Shown: positions 54,971 through 62,792 of the stretch, piece after piece | How positions within the stretch are numbered: position 1 is the stretch's first letter | Layout: every line of letters begins with the position of its first letter | Assembly (NCBI RefSeq): GCF_053078305.1 | Contig: NZ_CP166879.1 | Reading direction: 5' to 3' (one strand) | Length of the DNA: 64,000 nt | Translations under genes and position numbers: made by a program | Notes under the pieces: model-generated | What the model saw: only the letters and a program-made list of their open reading frames with translations | Told to the model about the DNA's origin: nothing | Database searches by the model: none

Positions 54971-55721
54971 AATCATCATTCATGTATCAGGAAGAGTTAA
55001 GGGTACAAGGGGTACTCGATGGCGGTCTATATTTCATGACTAACGCCATTTAAAGGAAGAAGTGCGGTGGGTGGTTTCGAATGAGGGCTGGTGTTTTGGT
55101 ACGTGGCACGCCACTGCAATGTATTTATCCATCAGTACTCATTCAAAAGTACCTGGAAAAAATGCCCGCTATGCCAAGCGGGCAAATTGCTTACATGTGG
55201 AATTAAGTAATTAACGATAAAGCCAGAGTATTATCATTTATTATACCCATTCATTTAATCAGGTTAATTACTCAAATCACTGAACTATTCTCTGTTCGCT
55301 CACTGATGATGAGTGAGTACCACAACCAATGTATGTAGAACAATGCCGTAGAGTAAGGATGAAATGTCTCTGCCACGCCTTAAACATCTACTACTGACTA
55401 GAACACCCGCCGCAGGTAGATGAGTTTTGTGAGCGTTACAGGAGTCTGGCTTTGCTCATTAATCAACGCTATTTAGATATAAATTTCTAACACTCGAAAA
55501 ACGATTTTCACTAATTAATTATAACGGGTGGTTTTTATCATACAGCGAAATAACCTTTTGTTTATTAAATTTAACATTCCTGTGCTAATTTAATTAAAAG
55601 TTCCATGCGTAGCAAGTGAAGCAGTTAATGTCAGTAATTGTCTCAAATGAGCGATTTTTTATAGTGACAAACAGTAATAACATTAAAAATAGCCATGTAG
55701 ACATTAATTGAGGAATAGACA

Positions 55722-57116
55722 ATGTTAGTTAGTAAAAGCAACGGATTTAACGCTAGCGCAGTTTTGGGTAGTGGAAGTTATAATGAAAATAAATCTTCTA
55801 AACATATGGAGCTACTAGCTCATAGTATTGTAAAATTAATTTGTAAGGAAGCTGCATCAGCGACGTATCGCGGTGCTCTTGAAACTTTACAAAAAATGAT
55901 GTCTGAATGTAAATATAAAGAAGGCAACGCCTTTGTCATTATGGGAGCTGGAGGGCAATTAAAACGTATTAAATATGATGTTGATGAAAACAAATTAAAA
56001 ATATTCACCATATACTTTGATAATAATTACGAGGTAGTTACTGATGGTGAGCCTGACGTAGTATGTTTAAGCAAGCAGGTCTGGGAAAATCTTCTCATTA
56101 AACTAAAGCTGGATAACAAAGAAAACACGGCTTCTGAAGTTCATAAATCAGCGAATAAAGGTGAGGTTGAGCAATTAGTTGAATGCTCTAAGAGAAATGA
56201 AAAGACGCTTCTTGATAATATAAGTAAAAATACTACCATCTATAATATTTACAATAACCAACGAGCAACAAACATTACTACATCTTTATCTGAACCACCT
56301 GCACAAGGTAAAAGTAATGATGTAGATAAATTAAAACAAACGCAGTTTATCAACGCTAGTCAATTTGATATTAATGAGCTTCAGCAGAGTTCTGCTTTTT
56401 TAGCGTCAAAATATCACACCATAGATATTCAAGAAAAAACAGATGCGTTTGTGAATGAGTTCAAGGGGATATTATTTGATCAAAATGGAAGGTCTTCAGA
56501 GTTTCTACTTAATTTTTATGAGTGTTGCTATAAGTTTTTACCAAGAGCTCAGCCTCAAGATAAAATCGATAGCTATAATTCAGCACTGCAAGCTTTTTCC
56601 ATATTTTGTTCATCTACGTTGACACATAATAATATAGGCTTTGATTTCAAATTATTTCCAGAAGTCAAGCTGTCTGGAGAACATCTTGAAACGGTATTCA
56701 AATACAAAAATGGCGATGATGTCCGGGAGATAGCCAAAATTAACATTACTCTCCAAAAAGAAGAGGGTGGCTTATATAATCTACGTGGATTGGATTTTAA
56801 GGGATGCTTCTTTTCTGGACAGAACTTCAGTAACTATGATATTCAATATGTGAACTGGGGAACGTCATTGTTTGATGTTGATACTCCGTGTATTTTTAAT
56901 ACGCCTGCTAACCATGAGAGTTATGAAAAATCATTAAAACCTGTGAGCGAAAACGGTTTAAATGGAGTCTTATCTGATCGTAATAAAAAAATAAAAATGA
57001 TCACGGGTGTGGCACCATTCGATGATATTTTATTTATGGATGATGACTTTGATGATAACTCCCCTGAGGATGCTCCCATTGAGAATAGTCCTGTTGTGAA
57101 TAGTCCCCTTGTATGA
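55722..57116 (+). CDS. Hypothetical protein with short pentapeptide-repeat-like segment and acidic C-terminus; YpjC-like by position
   Basis: 464-aa ORF in strongly AT-rich DNA; segment YNLRG LDFKG CFFSG QNFSN YDIQY VNWGT SLFDV has 5-residue periodicity; preceded by aggaa about 8 bp upstream of the ATG. Confidence 0.65.
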   Translation: MLVSKSNGFNASAVLGSGSYNENKSSKHMELLAHSIVKLICKEAASATYRGALETLQKMMSECKYKEGNAFVIMGAGGQLKRIKYDVDENKLKIFTIYFDNNYEVVTDGEPDVVCLSKQVWENLLIKLKLDNKENTASEVHKSANKGEVEQLVECSKRNEKTLLDNISKNTTIYNIYNNQRATNITTSLSEPPAQGKSNDVDKLKQTQFINASQFDINELQQSSAFLASKYHTIDIQEKTDAFVNEFKGILFDQNGRSSEFLLNFYECCYKFLPRAQPQDKIDSYNSALQAFSIFCSSTLTHNNIGFDFKLFPEVKLSGEHLETVFKYKNGDDVREIAKINITLQKEEGGLYNLRGLDFKGCFFSGQNFSNYDIQYVNWGTSLFDVDTPCIFNTPANHESYEKSLKPVSENGLNGVLSDRNKKIKMITGVAPFDDILFMDDDFDDNSPEDAPIENSPVVNSPLV

Positions 57117-57409
57117 AGTTCTAAAAGTAGTTTTCAATGATAAATAAATGGCTATTTTTACGAAGAGATAATAACGTAGATTGAAACAATATGTATTATT
57201 GATTGAGTAAATGGGATTATTCTTCACACTACATCCATTTTAGTGTCACTACCAAAGAAAAAGGGGCTACGTTTTCATGTAACCCCTTGATTTATTTGGT
57301 GGGCTAGCAGTGACTGAATTGGTGCTGTAATTGGTTGAAATATTTCATCTAATGTCTGGTTCAACTTTCCTTAGCTGCCTGAAAGTTTTTTGATCTCACC
57401 CAGCAATAA

Positions 57410-57530
57410 CAGCGTTACGGTGCACCACGCCTGACTGAAGAACTGCGTGCTCAGGGTTACCACTTCAACGTAAAACCGTGGCAGGAGGTCCGGACTGAAA
57501 AAACTGGTCAGGACATCATCGGCAGGGAAC
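57410..57530 (+). pseudogene. Fragment of an IS3-family transposase (integrase core)
   Basis: Short in-frame stretch translating to [25 protein letters not shown] with no start codon or full ORF. Confidence 0.5.
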
Positions 57531-62632: not shown

Positions 62633-62640
62633 CCATCAAC

Positions 62641-62707
62641 GAAAAAGCCCACATCTGTGGGCTTTCATGTCACCAGGAGCCGCGGCTCCTTTGCGTATCC
62701 TTTTTTG
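62641..62707. terminator. Two hairpins after ypjA: agcccaca-tct-gtgggct, and ggagccgcggctcc plus T-run (ypjA terminator)
   Basis: Second hairpin followed by tttgcgtatccttttttg on the plus strand; first hairpin is followed by a T-run when read on the minus strand (downstream of ssrA). Confidence 0.6.
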
Positions 62708-62792
62708 TATCCTCACCGTCTGGTCGGTGTCCTGCTGAGACTTCTAACTTCCTGTTTTTGTTGGTGTTGTCCTTGCACCGTCCAATCATGAT

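Follow-up and report, generated by a model that had tools for sequence, protein, structure and literature searches.

Gene content and composition between ileY and ssrA

The interval examined here, which we refer to as the islet, lies between the tRNA gene ileY and the tmRNA gene ssrA in a 64-kb stretch of E. coli chromosome (the window). Its features and those of the two RNA genes that border it are given below in window coordinates.

54896..54970, plus strand: ileY, tRNA-Ile(CAU) (Rfam tRNA, 63.1 bits; tRNA caller)
55722..57116, plus strand: ypjCB, intact, 464 aa (NF050179, 936 bits; DUF5507 and DUF5508)
57219..57302, minus strand: relic of a Fels-2/SopEPhi/RE2010-type arm (90-94% nucleotide identity)
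57297..57372, minus strand: relic attR of a CP4-57-like (P4-family) element (55/76 identity)
57408..57482, plus strand: internal fragment of an IS3 transposase gene (orfB) (92% nucleotide identity)
57486..57644, plus strand: pinH, internal fragment of a serine DNA invertase gene (79-85% to pinE/hin; phrog_125)
57664..58051, plus strand: ypjA leader/promoter region, including an annotated 39-aa ORF at 57868-57987 (paralogous copy at ymgJ)
58052..62632, plus strand: ypjA/EhaD, AIDA-I/Ag43-type autotransporter adhesin, 1526 aa (TIGR01414 barrel)
62635..62792, minus strand: spacer/pre-tmRNA trailer with a palindrome and a predicted terminator hairpin (folding; LLS attP arm homology)
62793..62809, minus strand: ssrA 3' core, attB for CP4-57-type integrases (single copy, T357 present)
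62793..63155, minus strand: ssrA (tmRNA), intact (Rfam, 295.8 bits, full-length model)

All of the elements named in the original prediction (ileY, an AT-rich gene, IS3 and Pin fragments, an autotransporter gene and ssrA) are present in the window, and its placement of the ypjA end about 160 bp from the ssrA 3' end is borne out by a stop codon that ends at 62632 and leaves a 160-bp spacer. Based on the ORF list and a profile search, the only real genes between ileY and ssrA are ypjCB and ypjA. An Rfam scan of positions 50000-64000 matched the tRNA and the tmRNA and nothing else, comparison of the interval with phage genomes returned short arm matches only, and a search of the window for an integrase gene beside the tRNA or tmRNA gene, a classical criterion for genomic islands, found none.

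The gene described as an AT-rich orphan is indeed AT-rich (GC 0.344), but it belongs to a named E. coli family (ypjCB; NF050179, DUF5507 plus DUF5508) and also matches phrog_30093, a family without a name. It is intact in the window and split into ypjC and ypjB in K-12 (156-bp versus 111-bp difference); no YpjCB homologue was found in isolated phage genomes, and PADLOC returned no match for it. The autotransporter had been labelled "1.5-kDa-class", a slip for about 1,500 residues. YpjA/EhaD has both parts of a type Va autotransporter adhesin, a 12-strand barrel translocator (TIGR01414, 332 bits, residues 1081-1526) and a beta-helical repeat passenger (11 TIGR04415 repeats, with partial Ag43/AIDA-I matches). 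The gene is annotated in relatives and has been associated with biofilm (PMC9289746). Its leader (57664-58022) is 87-89% identical to a copy upstream of an autotransporter gene at the ymgJ locus, and the 39-aa ORF within it is WP_001120794.1.

Base composition deviates over 54971-58051, where GC is 0.34-0.41 compared with 0.525 for the rest of the window, while ypjA (0.495) and the spacer (0.50) show no deviation. The low GC of the islet is real, but its onset lies at about 51600 inside ygaQ (GC 0.38), outside the interval, so that it spans the far side of ileY as well.

The anticodon of ileY is CAU (the ARAGORN label is Met), and the gene was identified by colinearity with K-12 and strain D8. 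Coliphage 186 attaches at ileY (PMC3448106), which upholds the earlier description of this tRNA gene as an integration hot spot, but we found no sign of integration there in the window. If the segment from ypjCB to ypjA were the remnant of an element integrated at the ileY 3' end, as coliphage 186 is at ileY/ileX, one might point to the same tRNA gene having its 3' end toward the islet, to the AT-rich DNA that adjoins it and to the loss of 1 nt, private to the window's allele, from its 3' acceptor strand. This strand has 6 nt (AGGGCC), compared with AGGGGCC in D8 and AAGGGCC in K-12, and the top matches among complete genomes all align at 161/162 and all carry the extra base. The window's ileY lacks the 7-bp acceptor stem contiguous with the T stem that characterizes a functional tRNA-Ile2, and its Rfam score is lower than that of D8 ileY (63.1 versus 71.6 bits); the deletion may be a sequencing error in the G-run. 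Overall, we consider integration at ileY highly improbable. The only match to the ileY 3' end in the window, with up to 3 mismatches allowed, is the gene itself, 186/P2-type sequence is absent beside it, the low GC runs on across ileY into ygaQ, and the recognisable att relics in the islet are all derived from ssrA.

The unoccupied attachment site at ssrA

P4-family tyrosine integrases, IntA of CP4-57 among them, use the last ~16 bp of ssrA as their target (attB). In the window, ssrA is 100% identical to K-12 ssrA, and its 3' end reads CCGCCAGCTCCACCA, with T357 present. A search for a second ssrA 3' core throughout the 64 kb with up to 3 mismatches matched ssrA itself and nothing else, the best tblastn hit of IntA in the window was not significant (E = 0.37), and blastn with CP4-57 gave no match. 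This window-wide absence of both an IntA homologue and CP4-57 DNA agrees with the earlier statement that the ssrA 3' end is unoccupied and that no integrase is present. As had also been stated, CP4-57 lies beside ssrA in K-12; the 22-kb prophage sits exactly at this junction, and the arrangement in the window therefore differs from that of K-12. When the junction was aligned against CP4-57-bearing K-12, the check originally proposed, the attL and attR homology blocks overlapped by 16 bp, the att core, at 62792-62807. The window thus corresponds to K-12 minus CP4-57, its flanks matching the bacterial sides of attL and attR as expected of an unoccupied attB, and the spacer and ypjA that directly follow the ssrA core are the DNA found beyond attR in K-12. 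The flank of the CP4-57 attB at K-12 ssrA (the IntA/AlpA system) is otherwise the same, with spacer, ypjA, pinH, ypjCB and ileY at 96-97% identity, while the prophage and its integrase are absent from the window. Nothing intact is integrated at ssrA now, and, judging from its sequence, the site should be integration-competent.

The original prediction regarded this arrangement as either an ancestral empty site or a clean excision product. The absence of CP4-57 stands, but the dichotomy is only partly apt, since T357 is kept and the flank is made up of relics of older ssrA elements (see below). Published CP4-57 excision deletes T357 of ssrA (PMC10107115, PMC3105296); the single core of the window retains T357 and, with it, the G3-U357 wobble pair that is lost in the K-12 excision product, and the window is therefore not that product. 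A CP4-57-like element could still have resided at ssrA in this lineage and recently left precisely, regenerating attB. Low-frequency excision of CP4-57 is documented in K-12 (PMC3105296, PMC10107115), a P4-like satellite occupies the ssrA site in related strains such as PapRG-06-5, and a precise event would leave no other trace. We nevertheless consider such an event very unlikely, given that the window carries the functional K-12 ssrA gene with T357 and that resident P4-like elements have damaged attR cores (the psaA/attR core of K-12 is 1 nt short, lacking that same T, and the PapRG-06-5 core is missing 5 nt), damage that would pass to ssrA in a crossover moving the attR core there, as reported for K-12. 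A junction query lacking T357 also found the T in all top 25 junction matches among complete genomes, though variants combined with spacer SNPs could escape such a search. Moreover, ssrA directly follows ypjA in D8, the closest complete genome, and the next-best full-length matches likewise cover ssrA. More generally, site-specific excision can restore attB exactly, and some element may have been precisely excised in the past.

The 771-nt junction running from ypjA through the spacer into ssrA is contiguous in 1384 of 5426 complete E. coli genomes, which rules out an assembly-collapse artefact and makes the empty site a frequent, previously known polymorphism of a documented hot spot. The shorter junction of ssrA and spacer is contiguous in 2756 of the 5426, the ssrA end being disrupted in about half, and the segment 57200-58200 (relic, IS3', pinH' and the 5' part of ypjA), taken as the islet marker, is found in 3001 (~55%). 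In four laboratory strains of E. coli, ssrA is occupied by a different element in each (PMC3032704), which together with the disruption in about half of the complete genomes supports the hot-spot description for this gene. On a 1-kb match PapRG-06-5 appeared to be the closest relative, but its identity is 98.0% over 14.6 kb; no near-identical complete genome exists for a sister comparison. That strains differ in whether CP4-57 is present at ssrA is textbook knowledge, and the observation is already known in kind; with the same junction in a quarter of complete E. coli genomes, it matters little as first stated. The intact T357, on the other hand, provides a sequence criterion for telling naturally empty sites apart from the excision product of K-12, in which tmRNA is inactivated.

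Relics of integrative elements in the flank

The outermost recognisable relic, on the minus strand, resembles the arm of Fels-2, SopEPhi and RE2010, P2-like phages (Felsduovirus) that integrate at ssrA in Salmonella and whose attP carries an ssrA 3' copy followed by a terminator-bearing arm (PMC3448106). Identity to this type of arm is 91.2% over 68 nt (57235-57302), and the relic includes a terminator-like hairpin on the minus strand at 57261-57288. The Fels-2 record starts with the ssrA 3' end and continues into the same arm, and this order is kept in the window, where 68-84 nt of the arm follow a degenerate ssrA 3' copy. Unlike these phages, the window retains the arm only; ogr, tail and integrase genes are all missing, and the relic is not adjacent to ssrA but 5.5 kb away.

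The degenerate ssrA 3'-end copy (57297-57318) lacks T357, is in direct orientation relative to ssrA and borders on a ~54-nt stretch with homology to the right arm of CP4-57. Over the whole relic attR, 55 of 76 positions agree with the right end of K-12 CP4-57 plus psaA (score 34, versus 10.5 +/- 2.0 and a maximum of 18 for shuffled sequences), and the relic is conserved at 98.6-100% in K-12, UMNK88 and D8. An ssrA query alone does not recover this highly degenerate core, and sliding local alignment of the ssrA 3' 46-mer over the islet gave nothing above background; the core is recognisable solely via its CP4-57-like and Fels-2-like flanks. The relic attR carries no annotation in the K-12 RefSeq record.

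Next to it lie two gene fragments. The IS3 fragment (75 bp, 22 residues in translation) is 92% identical to annotated IS3 transposase genes at the nucleotide level and has lost both IS ends. Fused to this scrap is a 53-aa fragment of a Pin/Hin/Fin-type serine DNA invertase, the counterpart of the pinH pseudogene of K-12, with 79-85% nucleotide identity to pinE/hin and a match to the phrog_125 DNA invertase family (E = 8e-15). NCBIfam models matched neither peptide, both being too short, and DNA searches and PHROGs provided the identifications. The pinH fragment matches LLS Fin and the AR96.3A pin gene in the same orientation, though at ~71-82% identity it is no closer to these invertases than to other pin genes.

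The spacer between ypjA and ssrA contains the palindrome GGAGCCGCGGCTCC (62676-62689) and, at about 62642-62666, a 10-bp terminator hairpin with a T-run that is predicted by folding to act bidirectionally with ypjA; a consensus terminator scan missed this main hairpin, since its stem shares bases with the T-run. Over 191 nt the spacer is 89% identical to phage LLS, beside the annotated tmRNA pseudogene/attP of that phage, and homology to the phage copies ends 2-9 nt past the ypjA stop codon. Escherichia phages LLS and Ayreon and the LLS-like prophage of E. coli AR96.3A are lambdoid, integrate at tmRNA and encode a Fin/Pin invertase. With them the window shares the 89% identical copy of spacer plus tmRNA 3' end and the same succession of invertase, cargo, spacer and tmRNA end, while it is without integrase, tail-fibre genes and the remainder of the phage. 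The order and orientation of invertase, cargo, spacer and ssrA are also the same in a Mangrovibacter prophage as in LLS and the AR96.3A prophage.

Copies of the spacer occur in about 10 genera at 87-93% identity, a distribution that could be read in two directions. If the site were virgin and ancestral, the spacer, ypjA and pinH would be old chromosomal DNA that no ssrA-targeting element brought in, and the ssrA 3' end and terminator of phages such as LLS would be copies taken from the host. Consistent with this, the spacer adjoins intact ssrA at eight loci in about seven enterobacterial genera, it holds the apparent ssrA terminator, whose hairpin shows a compensatory stem change between LLS and the window and which host function alone could conserve, and no YpjA homologue was found in isolated phage genomes. 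Several observations make a virgin site unlikely, however. A relic attR 5.5 kb farther out implies that the DNA between it and ssrA arrived later. The genes past the spacer differ in every genus (anti-phage dGTPase, TIR protein, DinI, HumD, tail fibre, IS3) and represent variable mobile-element cargo. Across genera the non-coding spacer is better conserved than smpB coding DNA (82-83%), while the ssrA-smpB intergenic DNA on the other flank cannot be aligned. Finally, pinH sits where the phages have their invertase gene and points the same way. The direction of spacer transfer is argued here from geometry and cross-genus patterns, and a conserved host terminator could instead have been picked up by phages.

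Proposed history of the flank

Taken together, these observations indicate that the region is very probably the normal ileY-ssrA variable segment of the E. coli chromosome in its CP4-57-free state, flanked by a stack of decayed ssrA-targeting elements. We infer this accretion from homology and geometry. The Fels-2-type, CP4-57 right and LLS attP arms all show homology in the orientation expected from ssrA, and the geometry of the layers fits successive insertions at ssrA, with no intermediate genome among the sampled match classes. Since the layout is common to K-12 and ~55% of complete genomes, it would predate the diversification of E. coli.

Recombination between the ssrA core and the attP of a newly arriving element would give ssrA a new 3' end, provided by the element, and displace the existing flank away from the gene. 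According to the proposed model, the ssrA-proximal arm at 57219-57302 would be the legacy of an older P2-like phage of the Fels-2 type, and a CP4-57-like element that integrated afterwards would have left the damaged attR at 57297-57372. Integration of an LLS-type lambdoid phage, bringing in order a tmRNA 3' copy with spacer and terminator, a cargo slot, a Fin/Pin invertase gene and tail-fibre genes, would have come later. Insertion of IS3 into pin, and deletions that followed, could then have removed most of the lambdoid prophage and most of the older element, leaving the spacer, ypjA in the cargo slot, pinH' and IS3'. The CP4-57 prophage of K-12 would be a later addition, absent from the lineage of the window. 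A search of E. coli genomes for intact pin and tail-fibre genes beside ypjA found none among the sampled match classes.

A similar picture is reportedly drawn for the enterobacterial tmRNA gene by Williams (J Bacteriol, 2003, 'Traffic at the tmRNA gene'), who is said to have described tandem arrays and relics of integrative elements there. In that account, ssrA is reportedly the target of several integrase lineages, older elements end up farther out and leave partial copies of ssrA behind, att sites are damaged by P4-subfamily integrases and strains differ in the elements they carry. Multiple lineages, outward displacement, att damage and strain differences are all observed here too; unlike those reported arrays, the window holds short relics only, with no integrase.

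A more specific reading, to which we would give roughly even credence, is that the islet of ~55% of complete E. coli genomes records, in fossil form, at least three elements that targeted tmRNA one after another (Fels-2-like, CP4-57-like and LLS-like lambdoid), that the native trailer and terminator of E. coli ssrA were supplied by a phage, and that ypjA/EhaD entered the species as cargo, in the att-proximal slot where other genera carry genes for anti-phage dGTPase or TIR proteins. The relics thereby suggest that tmRNA-integrating phages laid down the sequence downstream of ssrA, its terminator and a widely surveyed adhesin gene. The slot beside the spacer arm, which holds a 4.6-kb ypjA cassette in the window and small phage genes in LLS, Ayreon and AR96.3A, may represent a cross-genus landing pad for defence genes.

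Islet gene content and the ssrA junction

The window is E. coli DNA (top identity to any complete genome about 99.0%, across 21 kb of core genes), and the original prediction's inventory of the islet between ileY and ssrA was right, with every element located as follows.

Features of the ileY-ssrA islet
54895/6-54969/70, + strand: tRNA with anticodon CAU, ileY (tRNA-Ile2); ARAGORN, Rfam
55722-57116: ypjCB, 464 aa; NF050179, 936 bits; Pfam DUF5507 and DUF5508; GC 0.344
57408-57482: IS3 transposase fragment (IS3'), 75 bp; 92% nucleotide identity to IS3
~57486-57644: Pin/Hin-type invertase fragment (pinH'); 79-85% nucleotide identity to pinE/hin; phrog_125, E = 8e-15
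58052-62632: ypjA/EhaD, 1526 aa; autotransporter barrel TIGR01414, 332 bits
Between ypjA and ssrA: spacer, 160 bp
62793-63155, - strand: ssrA, complete tmRNA gene; ARAGORN; Rfam, 295.8 bits

Two descriptions need correcting: the "1.5-kDa" autotransporter has about 1,500 residues, and ypjCB, called an orphan, sits in a named family. It is a single 464-aa ORF in the window versus two annotated genes, ypjC and ypjB, in K-12, the two differing at 56230-56385 (156 bp versus 111 bp). The YpjCB protein matches the unnamed PHROG phrog_30093 (739 bits), and has neither a homologue among isolated phage genomes nor a PADLOC match. Many E. coli genomes hold a second copy of the ~360-bp ypjA leader (57664-58022), at 87-89% identity, ahead of a different autotransporter gene that adjoins ymgJ (the ycgV locus in K-12). 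The leader, which takes in an annotated ORF of 39 aa, would thus be a regulatory cassette common to both adhesin genes.

Aligned to K-12, the window matches up to the end of ssrA and then continues with K-12 sequence from beyond the attR of CP4-57, the two homology blocks overlapping at the att core (62792-62807). The 22-kb CP4-57 prophage is missing from the ypjA/ssrA junction, no IntA homologue or CP4-57 DNA was found anywhere in the 64-kb window, and the ssrA 3' core occurs only once in it; the junction is therefore a single-copy attB. The ssrA 3' end is thus unoccupied and free of integrase, as had been observed, and the arrangement is not identical in K-12, which carries CP4-57 at this junction. 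While the observation was correct, the interpretation attached to it, an ancestral empty site or a clean excision product, was right only in part.

On sequence grounds, an attB that was never used and one that was perfectly restored are formally indistinguishable, but one discriminator is available. In K-12, psaA, the displaced core at attR (L001 23972-23985), lacks one T, and excision of CP4-57 passes this defect to ssrA; this removes T357, which supplies the U in the G3-U357 identity pair, and leaves tmRNA inactive (PMC10107115, PMC3105296). The window's ssrA retains T357 and is 100% identical to functional K-12 ssrA, and the window is therefore not a K-12-type excision product. When T357-deleted junctions were sought in complete E. 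coli genomes with a deletion-bearing probe, the best matches were all T-bearing. A virgin ancestral flank does not stand either, given a relic attR and phage-like arms in the islet.

Relic attachment site and phage-like DNA in the islet

At 91% identity, the segment at 57235-57302 matches the attP-proximal arm of Fels-2, SopEPhi and RE2010, P2-like phages that integrate at ssrA (PMC3448106). Read in ssrA sense, the Fels-2 record opens with the ssrA 3' end followed by this arm. In the window the same arm comes after TTCAGTCACTGCTAGC-CCACCA, a degenerate copy of the ssrA 3' end from which T357 is likewise missing. Together, the right end of CP4-57 and psaA are homologous to the 76 nt up to and including this degenerate core, with identity at 55/76 positions (alignment score 34 versus 10.5 +/- 2.0 in 500 shuffles, maximum 18). 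The Fels-2-type arm, degenerate core and CP4-57-like right end together identify the segment as a relic attR. Judged from sequence, it marks the former integration of a CP4-57-like element into an ssrA that had, at the time, a Fels-2-type arm downstream of it. K-12, UMNK88 and D8 preserve the relic at 98.6-100%, and the K-12 record leaves it unannotated. Displaced ssrA cores at the distal end of P4-like elements are damaged differently, by 1 nt in K-12 and by a 5-nt deletion in the attR core of strain PapRG-06-5 (L024 14560-14600), and the relic (57297-57318) lacks the same T as K-12; these patterns fit a P4-like integrase family that routinely harms its own sites.

A megablast comparison of the islet with isolated phage genomes returned two short, informative matches, the Fels-2-type arm above and the spacer. 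The tmRNA-integrating lambdoid phage LLS matches the spacer (62642-62792) and the first 39 nt of ssrA at 89% identity, the match coinciding exactly with the annotated "tmRNA pseudogene" and attP of LLS, and the terminator hairpin carries a compensatory stem change (CCCAC/GTGGG in the spacer versus CCCGC/GCGGG in LLS). LLS and the AR96.3A and Mangrovibacter prophages are arranged as tail fibre, Fin/Pin invertase, a small set of cargo genes, spacer and tmRNA end; pinH', ypjA, spacer and ssrA are alike in order and orientation in the window. The match to the phage copies stops 2-9 nt past the ypjA stop codon.

An ssrA-targeting element enters at the gene itself, displacing older material outward. 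Since the relic attR lies 5.5 kb from ssrA, the intervening spacer, ypjA, pinH' and IS3' would have come later. We infer that the simplest source of this DNA would be an LLS-type lambdoid prophage, in which IS3 would have entered pin and subsequent deletions would have taken out the prophage body and most of the older P4-like element.

Occupancy of the ssrA site in E. coli and other genera

We counted probes as contiguous where at least 80% of the query lay in one place among 5426 complete E. coli genomes. A 771-nt probe (ypjA 3' end, spacer and ssrA) was contiguous in 1384 (25.5%), the 95-nt ssrA/spacer junction in 2756, and the segment from the relic through IS3' and pinH' to the ypjA 5' end (57200-58200) in 3001. 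Occupants of the site vary between strains: CP4-57 in K-12, a prophage with its integrase adjoining ypjA and a 37-bp ssrA duplication in UMNK88, a P4-like satellite in PapRG-06-5, and a tandem array replacing the whole islet in AR96.3A. Four laboratory strains each carry a different ssrA element, and two of them have lost ileY through IS (PMC3032704). The view of ssrA as an integration hot spot is thereby borne out, and the window's junction is a common, previously described state of it; the relic adds detail of modest interest to a feature that remains inside known biology.

AR96.3A offers a clear present-day case of a tandem ssrA array. About 43 kb (record 1168031-1211683) substitutes for the entire ileY-ypjA islet, comprising IS2 and IS1, a type I restriction-modification system, an LLS-like prophage and two elements that bear integrases. 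Between the elements sits a 34-nt copy of the ssrA 3' end.

Fifteen loci from about ten enterobacterial genera carry a 24-nt spacer motif, as do three contigs assigned to unrelated taxa. At eight loci the motif sits ~92-116 nt away from an intact tmRNA gene, with the same geometry as in the window. Genes past the spacer differ in every case and are mobile cargo: an anti-phage dGTPase in Lelliottia (L010), scoring 501 bits and so above the curated cut-off, a TIR-domain protein in Atlantibacter (L015) and Citrobacter freundii (L023), homologues of DinI and HumD/UmuD, genes for tail fibre and Fin, and IS3-family transposases. In Enterobacter hormaechei, Pseudenterobacter and Klebsiella indica (L013/L014/L017) the slot is taken by one and the same unannotated 401-aa protein. 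The slot resembles a hot spot for cargo and defence genes across genera, one linked to tmRNA-integrating phages. Strong functional constraint on a host terminator is an alternative explanation for spacer conservation. Between genera, identity is 87-93% for the non-coding spacer and 82-83% for smpB DNA, and the intergenic region from ssrA to smpB can hardly be aligned at all. This pattern suits a phage arm spread horizontally better than host DNA passed on by vertical descent.

The three oddly labelled contigs, a Collinsella MAG (L016), Chryseobacterium sp. (L018) and a Lachnospiraceae MAG (L021), carry enterobacterial spacer adjoining an ssrA 3' end or fragment. The first is E. coli-like (spacer 97.5%, ypjA 3' end 95.6% aa), the second has a complete tmRNA gene and a more divergent spacer (88%), and the third is a 96% match; all are almost certainly enterobacterial contamination or mis-binning.

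ileY and its surroundings

The identity of ileY was set by colinearity with K-12 and D8, the ARAGORN "Met" label being a mere consequence of the CAU anticodon. Coliphage 186 is known to attach at ileY (PMC3448106). The window gives no sign of integration at this gene: it holds no second copy of the ileY 3' end, the islet has no 186-like DNA in the comparison with isolated phage genomes, and low GC runs across ileY into ygaQ.

The ileY allele (54896-54970) is 75 nt long, with a deletion within 54960-54966. Its 3' acceptor strand reads AGGGCC versus AGGGGCC in D8 and AAGGGCC in K-12, one base short, so that U7 has no partner; the Rfam score is 63.1 bits, down from 71.6. The extra base is present in all top matches among the 5426 genomes, and the deletion may reflect either a sequencing error in the G-run or a true mutation that might cripple the tRNA. 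The deletion falls in the part of a tRNA gene typically used by 3'-end-targeting integrases.

The 750 bp between ileY and ypjCB contain a strong terminator-like hairpin with T6 after it (55163-55184, - strand; 8 pairs, 6 G-C), at a point where no annotated minus-strand gene ends; it might mark an unannotated small transcript or serve ileY in the opposite direction. On the other side of ileY, ygaQ (alpha-amylase family, 750 aa; 52084-54336, - strand) is AT-rich (GC 0.38), and the low-GC tract therefore extends on both sides of the tRNA gene. It is an intact ORF in the window, D8 and PapRG-06-5, a pseudogene in K-12, and carries an internal stop in AR96.3A.
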